Positions 47,131 through 60,400 of a stretch of 64,000 nucleotides of DNA are shown here, piece after piece (the first letter of the stretch is position 1; the number at the start of each line of letters is the position of its first letter). The stretch spans positions 736,001 to 800,000 of the forward strand of contig OY771587.1 of the NCBI GenBank assembly GCA_963674825.1. Direction: 5' to 3'. Made by a program: the position numbers and the translations under genes. The stretch is from Candidatus Cloacimonadales bacterium (GTDB lineage: Bacteria; Cloacimonadota; Cloacimonadia; Cloacimonadales; JAIOQZ01). The notes below the pieces were generated by a model that saw only the letters and a program-made list of their open reading frames with translations, had not been told where the DNA came from and ran no database searches.

Positions 47131-47363
47131 TTCTTCTTATCCTGATCGACGATTACTTCTTTGTCGGGATCGAGGTTGTCCCGACGTTGTCGCTTCGATT
47201 GCTCACGAAGCCGTTGCCGGGCATAAAACCACAGGACAAGCAACACCGGCAGCGTTATGTACCACAAGCGCATCAACAGGTAGAAAAGCCGGGCTCCAAG
47301 CCTGAAAATCAGAAGCAGAACCAGCACGGCAATAAGGATTCTTACGATGTTCTTCAACATCAA
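47127..47363 (-). CDS. Small hypothetical membrane protein
   Basis: Two hydrophobic helices and a charged tail; 4-nt overlaps with fliR and the next ORF; GGAGG RBS. Confidence 0.6.
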   Translation of the reverse strand: MMLKNIVRILIAVLVLLLIFRLGARLFYLLMRLWYITLPVLLVLWFYARQRLREQSKRQRRDNLDPDKEVIVDQDKKN

Positions 47364-48142
47364 CCTCCAGTAGCTCTGATGATTCCCATAATATCCTCTC
47401 GGAAAGCATCAAAAAGATGCAGAAATACGGATGCAAAATATCCCCAATAGAACGTCAGCATATAGAACCCAACCAGAATTCCAAGCGGCATCGCCACAAT
47501 CAGCACATGCATGTCGGGGTTCAGCTTCGATAGCAGACCGAGGATAACACGCTCGATCAGCAGCACTGCGAACACTGGCGCACCAATCTTGAGCCCGATA
47601 ACGAATATCTCAGATGTTATCCGTATCATTTGATTCAACAATGGCGCAGGGAATGTTACCTCTGTCAAGGGAATGATGTAGAAACTATCGAATAGCGCTT
47701 GAAAGAAGAAAAGATGACCGTTCACAGCAAACAGCAGCAGCACCGCGACAAAGTATTTCATCTGCCCCAACACCTGTACGTTGTCCTCGCTGGTGGGATC
47801 GACGAGCGTCATCATGGAAAGACTCATCATTCGGCCCATCATGAAACCGGCCAGATGCAGCCCTTCGAAGATTATCCGACTCGCCACACCAATTATTAGA
47901 CCAACCAATACCTCCTTCCCTGTGTAGAAAATAAGATAAAGGAAGGATACGGGAAGAACATCCGGGATGGGTACGACACTGGCGGTAATAAAAGCGAGAA
48001 ACATACTCAAAGCCATGCGGAAACGGAGATCAATCGACGGCGAAGACAGCAGCGGCATTGCGGTAAGCATCGAGCCGATGCGCACAAGGATGAGCAGAAA
48101 CTGCTCCAGCTCGGCGAGCGTGATTCCAAGATATTCGAACAT
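47360..48142 (-). CDS. fliR: Flagellar biosynthesis protein FliR
   Basis: KEVLVG, LVDP, NGHLFF and GLKIGAP motifs; follows fliQ. Confidence 0.92.
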   Translation of the reverse strand: MFEYLGITLAELEQFLLILVRIGSMLTAMPLLSSPSIDLRFRMALSMFLAFITASVVPIPDVLPVSFLYLIFYTGKEVLVGLIIGVASRIIFEGLHLAGFMMGRMMSLSMMTLVDPTSEDNVQVLGQMKYFVAVLLLFAVNGHLFFFQALFDSFYIIPLTEVTFPAPLLNQMIRITSEIFVIGLKIGAPVFAVLLIERVILGLLSKLNPDMHVLIVAMPLGILVGFYMLTFYWGYFASVFLHLFDAFREDIMGIIRATGG

Positions 48143-54194: not shown

Positions 54195-56237
54195 TTATTG
54201 ACGCTTCATGTTCTGGATGATGGTTGTCAGGATCGTGTCAGCCGTCGAGATCGTTTTGGCATTTGCCTGGATCGCGCGCTGCGCAACGATCATGTTGGTG
54301 AATTCCTTGGTCAGATCGACGTTAGACGCTTCCAGATAACCAGCCTGAATCGAGCTGCTGGCGTTGTCACCACCCCAGTTGATGATCGGATTACCGGTCG
54401 ATGAGTTCTCGGAATAAAGGCTGTTACCTTCCTTCTTGAGACCACCCTGGTTGGTAAAGGTCGCGATCGCGATCTGAGCAAGAGCCTTGCTCTGATCGTT
54501 GGTATAGTAGCCGGTGATGACGCCGTTGTCATCGATGCTGATCGTGGCAAGCTGACCCAGTGTATAGCCGTCCTGTTCGATCGCGATGGTCGTGCTGGCG
54601 GAAGCAAACTGAGTGATTCCGTCAAACGCGCCGGATGTACCGGCGTTGAACTGAATGTTCACTTCCTGTGCGCCGGGAACGTTGAATGTAAGTGCGTCGC
54701 CAGAATCGTACAGGAATTCCTTGAGTGAGCCATCTTCGTTGAAAGAAACGGTTCCGGAGGTACCGGCAGTCGGGTTGATCTCGCCGTTATCGACTGTCAC
54801 ATCCCATGTCCAGAAGTTGCTGCCAGGAGAGTTGTCCTGCGTGAAGTTGACCACCAGATTGTGTTCTGCACCCTGGCTGTCATACACGGTGATCTCAGTA
54901 GAGTGGGTACCGTTTGCGCCATCGACTACTTCCGACATGGAGGGCATCGAAACGCTGGTTGCGTTGGTTCCATTCACAGCACTAAACGCGAGATCCAGTC
55001 CACCACCGGTAAGGCTGGTGATCGTTGAAGTCACGTCAGCACCTGTTTCATTGTTGGTAAATACGAGGTTTCCGTTTGACAGGGTGGCTGTTACGCCAGT
55101 CATATTTCCGTTTATGAAGTTAAGCAGATCGCCGACTGTTGTGCCGTCGGTTCCATATTCGAAGCTCAAGGAAATGGTTGTGCCGTCTGTATCGATAGCA
55201 TTGAAGGCAAGTGTCGTACCTGAACCCACGGTTGAGCCGTCGATACTCGCCAGATCGGTTGAAGAAGTGGCGTTGTCAGCACCGGTGTTGATGGTCCAGC
55301 CAGTGGTCGAGGTATGAACCTGCGCGGTGGCTTCAACGGTGTCGGGCGGAATCAGCGCGAAGGAGAAGTCGTTAGGACCGGCTTCATTCGCCGTGAAGCG
55401 GATGTAACCGTTGTCGTCGATAATTACGGTTGCGCCATCACTGGAACCGGAATTAAAGGCCGTGTTGATCGATGTGACCAAGTCCTGAAGCGATGTTCCG
55501 GTTGTGCCATATGTGAAATCGACAGTTATTGCGTTACCATCACGGTCGGTACCGGTAATCTGGATCACATCGCCGTTCTGGATACTCACACCGTCGATGT
55601 CGGCAAGGTTGATCGCGCTAAGATTTCCGGAGCCGTTGATCGCAACGCCATCGATTTCCAGCGCTACGTCGGCAAGCCACTGTTCCGTGGTTGCAGCGTC
55701 GCGGTTGAGGTTGCAGTAGAGATCGACATTTTCGGTCGCGTGGGCTGGGTCTTTTCTACCGAAAGGCAGAACGATGTTTTCGAGTGATGTCGAGGAATTG
55801 ATACTTCCATCCTCATCCGCCATACGGCCCTGGACGAAGTATGATCCGCCCTGAGCGATGATCATGCCGTTGCTGTCAACCTGGAATGCACCCGCACGGG
55901 TGTAGTAGCGTGAGCTACCGTCGCCTACAATGAAGAATCCGTCGCCATTGATGGCGAGGTCGGTGCTGATTCCGGTCGATTCAAGCGTACCGGCTGCGAA
56001 GTTGGTGTCGATACTCGAGATACGGGTACCAAGCCCGATCTGAACGGGGTTGACGCCACCGAAGTTTCCTGAAGAACCGCGTGCGTCGGAAAGGGTCTGA
56101 GAAAATGTATCCGCAAAGGTGATGCGGCCGGACTTGAATCCGGTAGTGTTCACGTTGGCAATATTGTTGGCGATTACGTCCATGTAAGCCTGCTGGCTTG
56201 TTACTCCGGAGACTCCGGAAAACAGGGATCTTAACAT
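54195..56237 (-). CDS. flgE: Flagellar hook protein FlgE (long, 680 aa)
   Basis: MLRSLFSGVSG..IANNIANVNTTGFK, DLAINGDGFF, YTRAGAF and LEASNVDLTKEFTNMIVAQR. Confidence 0.95.
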   Translation of the reverse strand: MLRSLFSGVSGVTSQQAYMDVIANNIANVNTTGFKSGRITFADTFSQTLSDARGSSGNFGGVNPVQIGLGTRISSIDTNFAAGTLESTGISTDLAINGDGFFIVGDGSSRYYTRAGAFQVDSNGMIIAQGGSYFVQGRMADEDGSINSSTSLENIVLPFGRKDPAHATENVDLYCNLNRDAATTEQWLADVALEIDGVAINGSGNLSAINLADIDGVSIQNGDVIQITGTDRDGNAITVDFTYGTTGTSLQDLVTSINTAFNSGSSDGATVIIDDNGYIRFTANEAGPNDFSFALIPPDTVEATAQVHTSTTGWTINTGADNATSSTDLASIDGSTVGSGTTLAFNAIDTDGTTISLSFEYGTDGTTVGDLLNFINGNMTGVTATLSNGNLVFTNNETGADVTSTITSLTGGGLDLAFSAVNGTNATSVSMPSMSEVVDGANGTHSTEITVYDSQGAEHNLVVNFTQDNSPGSNFWTWDVTVDNGEINPTAGTSGTVSFNEDGSLKEFLYDSGDALTFNVPGAQEVNIQFNAGTSGAFDGITQFASASTTIAIEQDGYTLGQLATISIDDNGVITGYYTNDQSKALAQIAIATFTNQGGLKKEGNSLYSENSSTGNPIINWGGDNASSSIQAGYLEASNVDLTKEFTNMIVAQRAIQANAKTISTADTILTTIIQNMKRQ

Positions 56238-56322
56238 AACACTCTCCTTGTGTTTTGCATTCGTTCAGCGCGTCGGTCGTTCGGCGCTGACACAAGGGCT
56301 TCCTCTATGAGGTCCAGCCCGG
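56238..56322 (-). promoter_or_regulatory. Candidate structured cis-regulatory RNA in the flgE leader
   Basis: Two-domain pairing on the mRNA strand, with CCTTGTGT pairing to ACACAAGG over the flgE Shine-Dalgarno. Confidence 0.5.
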
Positions 56323-56709
56323 TTACAACAGCATTGCGCTGTCTATGTTGGTAAATACGTTCGAACTTGCATCGTCCACTGCGGTGATGACGGTCCTGTT
56401 AGGGACGCTGACCACGTATGAGACGTTGTCCATGACGATCAGTGATTCTTTTCCACCCTTCTGGGCGATCGTGTCCAACGCGCCTTCGAGACGCGCGATG
56501 TCTTCAGGTTCCAGATTGATGTTCCTCTCCTGAAGCCGTGTTTGTGCGTGAGCCGAGAATTGGAGGTTCTGCGATCTCAGCTTGTCCTGGAGTATTTGTT
56601 CGAAGTGCGATTGACGGCGTTTTTGTTCGAGCGTTTGATTCTGCCGTACGCTATCGGACTGTACTCCCTGAATGCGGGGATCAATCTGCTGTGTTACTCG
56701 CTGCAACAT
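56323..56709 (-). CDS. TIGR02530-family flagellar operon protein
   Basis: LQFSAHAQTRLQERNI, KGGKESL, VSVPNRTVITA and NVFTNIDSA motifs; lies between flgD and flgE. Confidence 0.88.
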   Translation of the reverse strand: MLQRVTQQIDPRIQGVQSDSVRQNQTLEQKRRQSHFEQILQDKLRSQNLQFSAHAQTRLQERNINLEPEDIARLEGALDTIAQKGGKESLIVMDNVSYVVSVPNRTVITAVDDASSNVFTNIDSAMLL

Positions 56710-56719
56710 GATCCACTCC

Positions 56720-57427
56720 TTAGTGGTTAGAAGCGACCTCGGTCGGATCGACGATTGTGCCATCATCCATCGAATCGAGTATCGAGATAACGTCTCCCAG
56801 GTTGACTTCCTGACCGTTTATCAGGAAATAGGGCGATCCACCGATGTAGGTGACTCCCTGAATCATTCCGACGGTATAGGTGTAAGCGGTTACTGCGTCG
56901 CCATCCGAATTGAGCGCATCCACCTTGAAGGTGTAATGTCCGGAATCGACTGTCTGTCCGCTGTCATCCCTTCCGTCCCAGGTAAATGAATGTTCTCCTG
57001 CCTGCTGATAACCGGCATCGATCGTGCGAACAAGGTCTCCCGATTCGTCATAGACGTTGATGGTTACATTGGCTGCACCATAGGTCTCGTACGATAAATC
57101 GGTATTCTCACCGCTGTAGGTTACGCCATTACCATAGGCTTTAGCGCCCTTTCCGATCAGCGAAGTCATGAAAGAGTTGTTCAACGATTGATCCAGAAGC
57201 AGGCTGTTTTCCAGCGTCTCCTGGATGTTGTTCAATGTTTCGAGCGAGCTGTACTGGGCAAGCTGCGCGGCCATGGCCGTGTTGTCCATCGGTTCGAGCG
57301 GGTCCTGATATTGCAACTGGGTGACCAGCAGTTCCAGGAAGTCGTCTTTGTCCATTGAACCATTCGATACTGTTGTGTTCGTGTAGCTATCTGCCACTGA
57401 ACCCGATATTCCGACGATATCACTCAT
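56720..57427 (-). CDS. flgD: Flagellar hook capping protein FlgD
   Basis: KDDFLELLVTQLQYQDPLEPMDN..AQLAQYSSLE and a FlgD-Ig domain. Confidence 0.96.
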   Translation of the reverse strand: MSDIVGISGSVADSYTNTTVSNGSMDKDDFLELLVTQLQYQDPLEPMDNTAMAAQLAQYSSLETLNNIQETLENSLLLDQSLNNSFMTSLIGKGAKAYGNGVTYSGENTDLSYETYGAANVTINVYDESGDLVRTIDAGYQQAGEHSFTWDGRDDSGQTVDSGHYTFKVDALNSDGDAVTAYTYTVGMIQGVTYIGGSPYFLINGQEVNLGDVISILDSMDDGTIVDPTEVASNH

Positions 57428-57437
57428 AGTTTCCTCC

Positions 57438-60400
57438 TCAGGCTACATAATCGATTGTGTTGTAGCCAGTTTGTTTCGACATTCTGCCGGTTTTCGCCTG
57501 TGGTTTTTCGATCGCTGTTGCTGTTGTTTTTTGTTTTGCGAAATTCCGGGGGTGTTGTTCGTTTTTCCTGCGATGTTGTCTGTCATAATCGTACTCAATG
57601 TGTACGTCCTCATAACCGAGTCGGGTAAAGTGTTCCTGCAAACCCTTCAAGGTATCTTGCAGGTATTTCATTTTTTCACTGTCTTCCGCTACGAGCAATA
57701 CCTGAAGCTTGCCGTTTTCCGTCTCAAGAACTGTCTGGACTCGTCCGGTTTCCTCGCTCGAAATCTCGAATTTCGCCCAGTTCTTCACTTCGGTAACGCC
57801 TGACTGGAAGTCCTTCAGTTCCTGCATCGCCTTCATCAGAAATTCATTGGTGAAGGTTTGCGGCATAGGTTGATTTTGCGCCATCGTGGGGCGACTGATT
57901 GTTGGTTCCAGCGTCATGTTTTCATTGAGCTGGATTGCCGGCTGATTATCGTTCTGCGGTTTCGTAAAAGTCTGGTTATCCCTGGAGGGGAGCTCTTCCT
58001 GTCGTCCCTGGTCGCTCATTTCAGGCTCAGACTGCCGCTGTGGCTTCTCTATATCGATCGTCTCCTGCACCGGATTCTCCACCCGTTGCTCGTTTGTTTG
58101 CATAGGCTTCACCGACATTGGATCGATTGGAATGCTTGTTTTATTCTTCAATTCATTGGCCAGCACAGGATCGTGATGATCGCGCACGATGTTCTCCGAA
58201 ACCTGCTGCTTCGAGATCTGAGGATTCTCAGTTGCCACCTTCGGCTCGATGTGCGCTTCAATGCGAGGCTGATCGGTCGTCACCTTCGGTTCGATGTGAG
58301 ACTCCGTACGGGGCTGCTCGGTCGTCACCTTCGGCTCGATGTGTGCTTCAGTACGAGGCTGATCAGTTGCCACCTTCGGTTCGATGTGCGATTCAGAGCG
58401 AGGTTGCTCGGTCGTCACTTTCGGTTCGATATGCGCTTCAGTGCGAGGTTGCTCAGTTGCCACCTTCGGTTCGATGTGAGACTCTGTGCGAGGCTGATCG
58501 GTCGCCACCTTCGGCTCGATATGCGCTTCAGAGCGAGGCTGCTCAGTTGCCACCTTCGGCTCGATGTGTGCTTCAGTACGAGGCTGATCGGTTGCCACCT
58601 TCGGTTCGATGTGAGACTCCGTACGGGGCTGATCGGTCGTCACCTTCGGCTCGATGTGCGCTTCAGAGCGAGGTTGCTCGGTCGTCACCTTCGGCTCGAT
58701 ATGCGCTTCAGTGCGAGGCTGCTCAGTTGCCACCTTCGGTTCGATGTGTGCTTCAGTGCGAGGCTGCTCGGTCGTCACCTTCGGTTCGATGTGCGACTCT
58801 GTGCGAGGCTGCTCAGTTGTCACTTTCGGTTCTACGACCTTGCTTTCGACCTGCTGGCGATGCGTGTTCCAGTTACGGGCATTGGTTTGCAAACCCGGAA
58901 ACAATTCCGTTCGATCCTGCTGAGTGGTCGAACTCGTGGTTTGCTTTTCTTCGATCACGCGTGCCATTTCGAGAATCGCTTCTGCTTGTGAGGAATGCTT
59001 TCTTACAGACCTTAGCGCTTGAGAAGAGTTTTGAAAAATAATCTTAGAATCTACGGCCTGCGGCTCAGCTTTCGTATCGGTCACCGGCTGTTGCGGCGTA
59101 GAAGCAAACGTCTGAGGCTCAGCTTTTGTATTAGTCACCGGCTGTTGCGGCGTATGAACCATTGTCTGAGACTCAGATTTCGCATCGGTCACCGGTTGTT
59201 GTGGCGTTTGAGCAAACGTCTGAGGCTCAGCTTTTGTATTAGTCATCGGCTGTTGCGGCGTTTGAGCAAACGTCTGCGGCTCAGATTTCGCATCAGTCAC
59301 CGGCTGTTGCGGTGCAGAAGCAAACGTCTGCGGCTCAGCTTTTGTATTAGTCATCGGTTGTTGCAGCGTTTGAGCAAACGTCTGCGGCTCAGCCTTGGCA
59401 TCAGTTACCGGCTGTTGCGGTGCAGAAGCAAACGTCTGCGGCTCAGCTTTTGTATTAGTCATCGGTTGTTGCAGCGTTTGAGCAAACGTCTGAGGCTCAG
59501 ATTTCGCATTGGGCTTCGAGTAGATCGGCTTTGCAGACTCGAACTCGTGTTGAGCAAGCGGAACGACCTTGCTGGATGCCATCTGGTAAGGAGCTATCTT
59601 CGGCTTTACCTGGCTCTGAACGGTTTGTCCTGTCACACCCTCTTTTCGCTGAGGCGTAACGGTAACAGATTTCTCCCCCGCAACATGATTTACGGTAGTA
59701 GAATCCTTGAGTTTAACAGGTTGCTGAGGCTCCGGAGAAGCTTTCTCATGGCGATTAACGACCCTGTCATCAGGTTTCTCTGTAAATTTTGTCGCACCCG
59801 CATCAGCCTGTTCCTTGGGAGTTCCCACATAAGGAACAGCCTTTTCCAAGAGATTCGCCGCAGTGTCAACATCGTGCTCCACGGATTTCTGAAGATTAGT
59901 TCCGAACTTGTATTCATGCTTTGCAGGCGACGGTACTATCTTATCTTCGCGCTTTGCAGACTCCGTTATTGCCTTATCTTTGCGTTGAGATGACTCTATC
60001 GTCGCCTCGCCGTTAGGCTTTGGTGACTGTGTGTTACCCGTTTCAACGTGTTCGGGAAACACCGTCACAACTCCTTCTTTACGCAGATCAAGATCAAATT
60101 TCGAGGTTGTTGGAATCAAAACAGACATGAAGTCTTGTGTTTGTTCCGGGTATTCTTTTCCGCAACGGGAGTCATGCTCGTGCCGAATTTTTCCATGACA
60201 GCCAGAACACTGGTCCGGCTTTCGGAAACTGAATCGGATGTATGCTCAATTGCCTGCTTCAGGGATGCAGCCTGATCAAGTTGTACAATTTTAGCTTTTG
60301 CACCGAGCTCTGTGGTTGTATGTCCTGTAACCGTACTCGCCTTACTGGAAATATTTTTCCCAGAGGACAGGTTCGCAATAATATTGAAGAATCGGGTGCT

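Follow-up and report, generated by a model that had tools for sequence, protein, structure and literature searches.

An RNA of two hairpins, absent from Rfam, lies in the leader of the flagellar hook gene flgE directly behind the gene for the orphan flagellar protein TIGR02530, and it is kept or lost together with this neighbouring protein. It is very likely that the RNA and the protein act as a pair, whatever the sign of the effect. One such locus is present in the window, by which we mean the whole 64,000-nt stretch of Candidatus Cloacimonadales DNA analysed here; no second copy of the RNA was found in this genome, where the flgF-flgG gap is ~11 nt.

The hook operon and the two hairpins of the flgE leader

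The minus-strand operon runs in the order fliK-like gene, flgD, TIGR02530 gene, flgE, flbD, motA, motB, fliL and onward to fliR, with which it ends (Table 1). Genes flhB, flgFG, flgBC and csrA occupy four other places of the genome, outside the hook operon. The first-pass annotation had recognised a TIGR02530 gene between flgD and flgE, and both the family score and the neighbours bear this out. FlgE is unusually long and stands beside a FliK-like protein of 896 aa in which two long tandem repeat blocks, of ~19-aa and ~15-aa units, were recognised by eye; a long hook may be specified here.

Table 1. Features of the hook locus, in positions of the window
Feature	Position	Strand	Remarks
fliR	47360-48142		end of the operon
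flgE	54195-56237	minus	flagellar hook protein, 680 aa; putative regulated gene
flgE leader gap	56238-56322	minus	85 nt, between TIGR02530 gene and flgE
Small hairpin	56238-56254	minus	AACAC/GUGUU
ACACAAGGAG	56244-56253	minus	target of the anti-SD (56253-56246); overlaps flgE SD AGGAG (56248-56244)
HP2	56265-56290	minus	7-bp covarying stem; 12-nt loop CGAA-CGAC-CGAC (56283-56272) with three GA spaced 4 nt
Anti-SD CCUUGUGU	56290-56297	minus	linker and last bases of the HP1 3' strand; forms an alternative pairing, with conservation confined to Cloacimonadota
HP1	56296-56320	minus	5-bp stem, 3x1 internal loop GGA/A, CCUC/GAGG stem; the part of the motif found universally
HP1 5' strand	56309-56320	minus	GGCUGGA-CCUC
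TIGR02530 gene	56323-56709	minus	128 aa; HMM score 99 bits against a cut-off of 83.2
Codons of F36-E-Q-I-L40	56590-56604	minus	FxxxL motif; F in 134/134
flgD	56720-57427	minus	hook cap; same operon, upstream; F30xxxL34 present
fliK-like gene	57438-60128	minus	896 aa

The leader gap folds at -29.6 kcal/mol (z -2.88), an energy that is equalled by 2 of 200 shuffled sequences. Hairpin 1 (HP1) forms exactly as it had been written earlier, GGGCU-GGA-CCUC-AUA-GAGG-A-AGCCC, with pair probabilities of 0.98-1.0, and the inner stem UCAGCGC/GCGCUGA of the second domain is likewise confirmed (0.85-1.0). The most conserved part of the element, the 12-nt GA-repeat loop of hairpin 2 (HP2), had been overlooked. 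Scanning of the gap revealed neither a promoter-like (sigma-70) nor a terminator-like site, in agreement with the earlier remark that the gap lacks a U-tract and is no terminator. The proposed cmscan search against Rfam 15 placed no family on the element at E 10, and none at E 5 in eight other loci. Inspection led us to reject a kink-turn in HP1, given the 3x1 shape of its internal loop and the covarying Y-R pair. The 5' strand of HP1 also resembles the 3' end of the organism's own 16S rRNA, GCGGCUGGAUCACCUCC; judged from this post hoc likeness, HP1 might mimic the duplex of Shine-Dalgarno sequence (SD) and anti-SD beside helix 45.

The structure is conserved far beyond the Cloacimonadota, where TIGR02530 occurs in 19 of 177 genomes. 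A search of GTDB that started from the protein gave 535 confirmed TIGR02530 loci, the best 80 of which were used; among these best 80 are Cloacimonadota, Geobacter and relatives, Bacillota, Armatimonadota, Fibrobacterota, Actinomycetota, Calditrichota, FCPU426 and Bacteroidota. Hairpins were counted in 89 loci (101 minus 10 duplicates and 2 unparsed). Behind the TIGR02530 gene, HP1 is present in 87 of them, one of which (L055) was mis-paired by the script, in about nine phyla and at a rate of 8% in shuffled sequences; at stricter settings the figures are 82 of 89 and 1.2%. HP2 was recognised in 66 of the 89, and the two HP1-negative and the two unparsed loci were all matched by the RNA model.

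The first-pass annotation had proposed looking for covariation in such gaps across phyla, and it was found. In an alignment of 51 sequences, which were picked for having both hairpins at typical length and thereby favour the structure, 91.8% of cells are paired and 13 of 16 pairs show two-sided change, as high as in none of 500 shuffles; controls with the alignment slid gave 40-52% paired. Within Cloacimonadota (n=16) the corresponding values are 92.7% and 11 of 16 pairs. Among 87 distinct model hits the consensus of HP1 is RGGC-Y / GGA / CC(UC) loop (GA)GG / R / R-GCCY, in which the Y-R pair appears as U-A, U-G, C-G, A-U, G-C and often C-A, while the G-G of the internal loop is invariant and its A is found in 92%. 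In the same hits HP2 is a stem of free sequence closing a YGAN-YGAY-NGAN loop. Such invariant loop bases on variable stems resemble a ligand-binding site, suggesting that the RNA may be recognised by a partner.

A plasmid search gave no match, and the sole match of a phage search was one unannotated scaffold (L021, MT835480), a phage-filed record with a bacterial-type TIGR02530-RNA-flgE locus that is probably chromosomal DNA.

Co-occurrence of the RNA with the TIGR02530 protein

A comparison of the presence of the RNA with that of the protein, which had been suggested as a check on the proposed switch, separates the two kinds of operon in Bacilli. Among 151 Bacilli genomes, 113 carry flgD and 72 of those carry TIGR02530. 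A genome-wide search placed the RNA beside TIGR02530 in 68 of the 72, and in the other four it was found with filters off (E 2e-7 to 2.6e-3), giving 72/72. At the flgD loci without TIGR02530 the RNA was found in 0 of 41 (best E 0.91), in stretches that included the start of a flgE-type gene and several of which have flgD-flgE gaps of 80-172 nt; two weak matches in protein-negative genomes are off-locus. Overall, 70 of the 151 genomes, about half, contain the RNA at E 0.01. On a tree of 78 FlgE N-termini (from 36 of the 41 negative loci and from 42 of 43 positive ones), which is built on few columns and whose bootstrap had not settled, the RNA/protein label changes about 10 times, at least five of them on well-supported branches.

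In a filtered search the Desulfobacterota, the phylum of Geobacter, repeat the pattern: 66 of 101 genomes have flgD, six of these have the protein, and the RNA accompanies it in 6/6 and stands at the flagellar locus in 0/60 of the others, two of which gave weak matches inside unrelated sequence. The association is also visible from the RNA side. A pattern scan of metagenomes for the RNA returned at least 119 stretches, and of the 80 examined 70 form the stems and 10 do not. TIGR02530 lies within 450 nt upstream in 59 of the 70, and a FlgE/FlgG-type start follows in 65 (58 by script, 7 by eye); the remaining ones are cut off (two) or differ (three).

The element keeps a close distance to the gene behind it, with a median of 29 nt from the end of HP2 to the start codon (96 loci). 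HP1 starts at most 15 nt from the TIGR02530 stop in 72 of the 96 loci, and the distance reaches 202 nt. In one Bacilli clade (L213, L214, L219, L220, L225, L226), in whose genomes csrA was not found, HP1 overlaps the end of the TIGR02530 frame and the stop codon lies in the apical loop; the single internal TAG in the family match of L220 (G248) is this stop within HP1 and not the mark of a broken gene.

Copies of the RNA also occur away from the TIGR02530 gene. Genome G182 has one copy after the TIGR02530 gene with flbD behind it (L074) and a second before a relocated flgE (L119), while a further flgE paralogue (L124) is without the element though the genome carries the protein. In G435 the element precedes each of two tandem flgE paralogues (L236), in G184 (L118), L279 and L330 it occupies the flgF-flgG gap, and in L332 it stands before a gene assigned by position as fliK-like. 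Every whole genome with such a detached copy also has the TIGR02530 protein. Since detached copies precede a relocated flgE, a flgE paralogue and flgG, the RNA seems to travel with rod and hook genes, and the protein would act on it in trans. In L274 and L309 the RNA separates flgD from flgE and no TIGR02530 gene lies between them; these contigs are too short for a verdict. The full two-hairpin motif was also seen 3' of a Ser/Gln-rich gene ending in YLQQSS (L283:451-492; L335:451-490 / L237, G357), with no rod or hook gene behind it and, in L335/L237, with a terminator-like hairpin following; these copies are possibly decoys or a 3' use of the site.

The ribosome-binding site and the TIGR02530 protein

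The first-pass annotation held that the RNA buries the flgE SD in an outer stem, CCUUGUGU/ACACAAGG. The two strands are indeed complementary, the inner stem starting on the U with which this one ends, but burial as the default state did not stand: the probability of the stem is at most 0.014 in four local folding windows and reaches ~0.55 in just one, of 301 nt. The SD is not buried by default: the minimum-energy fold displays it in the loop of a small hairpin (Table 1), and the best structure with the outer stem costs 3.0 kcal/mol more. The same SD-displaying hairpin is present in three close relatives.

Opening of HP1 changes the prediction. With the 5' strand of HP1 held open, the anti-SD helix of the window forms with P 0.58. 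Across 19 Cloacimonadota loci the median probability of SD-antiSD pairing is 0.01 in the free RNA (above 0.5 in 0/19) and 0.92 with HP1 opened (16/19), and the opened state exceeds 0.5 in 2 of 33 Bacilli and 3 of 44 other-phyla loci. The paired sequences are CCUUGUGU/ACACAAGG in some Cloacimonadota and CCUCC/GGAGG in others; comparison across the phylum shows that the anti-SD is not limited to a single family. In the 19 loci, which are kin, each SD pairs better with its own anti-SD than with permuted ones (-9.98 vs -8.34 kcal/mol, p 0.0006), a signal not seen in Bacilli (p 0.71, 33 loci) or other phyla (p 0.31, 44 loci). The outer stem thus corresponds to a predicted OFF state of this lineage, brought about when HP1 opens, and folding predicts that in Cloacimonadota the free RNA is ON and the HP1-opened RNA is OFF. 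What remains of the proposed SD-occluding RNA is a conserved structure in which occlusion is conditional, specific to Cloacimonadota and not part of the conserved core.

The TIGR02530 protein is modelled with a pLDDT of 85.8 as a loose N-terminus, a helix at residues 23-45 and a helix-helix-three-strand domain, which corresponds to a layout of polar N-terminal tail, FxxxL helix and RelE/BECR-like domain at about residues 46-120. The top 16 rows of a wide structural search, all of which are of the RelE/ParE type by their titles, aligned 62-72 residues at rmsd 2.7-3.8 and Z 4.6-6.1, the warning level being Z 8. The resemblance to RelE-like folds, first read from FSAHAQTRLQERNI, which is present in the protein, thus finds agreement in the predicted fold at a modest Z, but the DUF4258 profile matches at E 0.059 only and no Foldseek match reached E 0.001. 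Searches by sequence against solved structures returned 0 matches at E 10, and an atlas search returned the TIGR02530 family alone.

Ser52, His54, Arg58, Thr109, Thr120 and Asp123 are invariant in all of 134 sequences, which were selected by similarity to the query, and Arg62 is conserved in 95%. The predicted core is like that of the BECR proteins (RelE/ParE and the colicin-like type including DUF4258), and among the invariant residues are His and Arg in the first helix and a Thr in the final core strand. Colicin-like BECR ribonucleases are described, in the text of a preprint that mentions neither flagellar proteins nor PF12611 (10.64898/2026.08.28.747851), as keeping a His and, close to it, basic residues in their first helix, and His54 and Arg58 would fit such a pocket. 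In contrast to BECR nucleases, the protein is flanked by flgD and flgE with no antitoxin or immunity gene beside it, keeps a fixed flagellar context and carries an N-terminal FxxxL tail.

Within this tail Phe36 is invariant, the residue at +4 is hydrophobic and FxxxL is found in 121 of the 134 sequences. The Phe lies at a median position of 35 (5-95%: 29-42), after a polar proline-rich linker, and 122 of 134 proteins have a small hydrophobic residue in positions 2-6. Early flagellar export substrates carry a hydrophobic N-terminus and an FxxxL-type gate motif ~30 or more residues in, according to PMC8983047. The TIGR02530 protein has both the N-terminal residue and the FxxxL placement of such a substrate, and its motif is a candidate export tag; the helix could instead simply pack on the domain. 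Phage G gp136 (L103:5846-6193) is called TIGR02530 in its report (10.1101/2024.12.16.628780); it gave no HMM match at E 1 and has only the H-x-x-x-R start in common, and no copy of the RNA was found in the surrounding 13.5 kb.

Proposed mechanism, rival readings and significance

Three outcomes that can be computed had been named beforehand as speaking against the switch, and none of them was seen: the leader is conserved across phyla, the RNA is not equally present in operons lacking TIGR02530, and the predicted fold is, at a modest Z, not unrelated to RNA-acting ones. We see about an even chance that the TIGR02530 protein is a repressor which recognises the leader, lowers the output of FlgE and is drained by export while the rod and hook are being built. 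The protein, suggested as the ligand by its RelE/BECR-like model and the invariant His54/Arg58, would bind the flgE leader and open or cut HP1, leaving less FlgE. In Cloacimonadota the opened HP1 would free the anti-SD to pair with the flgE SD, as folding predicts; elsewhere the bound protein may act sterically or by cleavage. The protein may itself leave through the gate among the early substrates, with FxxxL as its tag. With the gate open in rod/hook mode, the repressor would then leave the cell and FlgE could be made, until the specificity switch ended this. The stronger form of this proposal, in which a domesticated toxin-fold ribonuclease serves as a secreted checkpoint, cutting or opening rod and hook leader RNA and itself being exported, so that synthesis proceeds only in the early gate mode, is tentative and we hold it to be rather unlikely.

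The effect might also have the opposite sign, which we judge possible but somewhat improbable: the protein would stabilise HP1 and keep the SD free, or cut the operon mRNA so that hairpin-protected flgE message accumulates, yielding FlgE in excess over FlgD and FliK. Co-occurrence and covariation apply equally to such an activator, and since the anti-SD competes with HP1, a ligand that stabilises HP1 gives ON. A hook needs ~120 copies of FlgE (PMC4032328). At two loci of the genus Geobacter (L256, L258), one raw unstranded RNA run (289 and 1619 reads) has a depth of ~3-6 over flgD against 9-52 over the element and most of flgE, but this run is shallow, upstream genes are as deep as flgE and reads were not seen to end at the element; three contig runs attest presence only. 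Against the activator, the free RNA is already predicted to be ON, leaving it little to do, and if exported it would drop just when FlgE is needed.

That the RNA works without the protein, by ribosome-coupled refolding, as a sensor of a small molecule or with another factor, is quite unlikely. Because the TIGR02530 gene and the RNA adjoin, they could be lost by a single deletion, and co-occurrence would then reflect linkage. The short distance from the stop codon to HP1 in most loci, and the overlap in one Bacilli clade, would let a terminating ribosome open HP1, and in L274 and L309 no TIGR02530 gene stands beside the RNA. However, the RNA is missing from all 41 protein-negative flagellated Bacilli despite ample gaps in several and at least five separate changes, its detached copies in whole genomes all belong to protein-bearing genomes, and the stop-to-HP1 distance can be long.

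It is highly unlikely that the RNA is an address label by which the protein holds rod and hook mRNAs at the export gate, so that translation is coupled to export while output changes little. The targets are early export substrates (flgE, flgG and the one fliK-like gene), the FxxxL of the protein is like a gate motif, and the copies 3' of a gene in L283 and L335 have no downstream target; the conserved spacing to the start codon and the anti-SD are left unexplained by this reading. Least probable of these is that the GGA of HP1 is a CsrA site through which CsrA-FliW controls flgE as it does flagellin: the loop bases are nearly invariant, csrA adjoins a fliW-like gene in this genome and the hairpin loop with the SD, ACAAGGAGAGU, looks like a CsrA site, but the GGA sits in an internal loop in YGGAC context and not in an apical ANGGA loop, and csrA does not explain the RNA pattern because it is present in 33 of 41 RNA-negative flagellated Bacilli and has no match in 9 of 72 RNA-positive ones, eight of one clade.

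We return to the RNA as candidate target of the TIGR02530 protein and to its place among known systems. In the FliW-CsrA system a protein acting on an mRNA leader sets the level of flagellin and is linked to export. The candidate pair is alike in that a leader-acting protein would set the level of an abundant flagellar building block, and differs in its hook and rod targets instead of the filament, in another protein fold and in an RNA that does not track csrA. FlgM, LcrQ/YscM and ExsE are small regulators removed by type III export as a checkpoint, mainly at the level of transcription; the present candidate, in contrast, has its own predicted RNA-acting domain and a dedicated RNA site. Leaders of ribosomal-protein operons are small and covarying, with a purine-rich internal loop, and are bound by a protein of the same operon, whereas the partner here is not known to be built into the finished structure, and its site follows the gene of the regulator itself. 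Type III toxin-antitoxin loci carry tandem RNA repeats upstream of the nuclease gene; here there is one RNA copy, downstream of the gene. Taken together, the element would be a protein-bound cis-regulatory leader, with a real chance of being a new kind of secretion-coupled checkpoint.

Structured cis-elements before flagellar genes, ending near the SD, have been described as Termite-flg (RF01729) and flg-Rhizobiales (RF01736) in PMC2864571. Our element is like them in these two respects, but Termite-flg matches 0 of 5 motif-bearing genomes at E 1, and the sequences printed there are longer, come from narrow taxa and are without YGGACC and the GA-repeat loop. In the literature searched, which excludes subscription papers, TIGR02530 appears in the phage G paper only and PF12611 in no paper. 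A description of the two-hairpin RNA was not found in this literature; flagellar terms are absent from the main text of PMC8632094 and PMC11109978 and from the readable supplements of PMC8632094 and PMC6429828, and the supplements of PMC11109978 and PMC5737381, which lay outside this coverage, could hold the motif.

None of 14 control genomes, E. coli and B. subtilis among them, yielded the protein, and this may explain why the family has been overlooked and such a checkpoint missed. If true, the checkpoint would be a second and earlier secretion-coupled one beside FlgM, acting on mRNA in many phyla. A directly testable function is proposed for the widespread family TIGR02530. For the control of hook synthesis the analysis points to a site on the RNA and a protein that may be its partner, as well as to residues that could be catalytic and a putative tag for export. 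The finding bears on how one operon yields ~120 hook subunits against few cap and ruler subunits, and on how hook synthesis stops, outside the model organisms.
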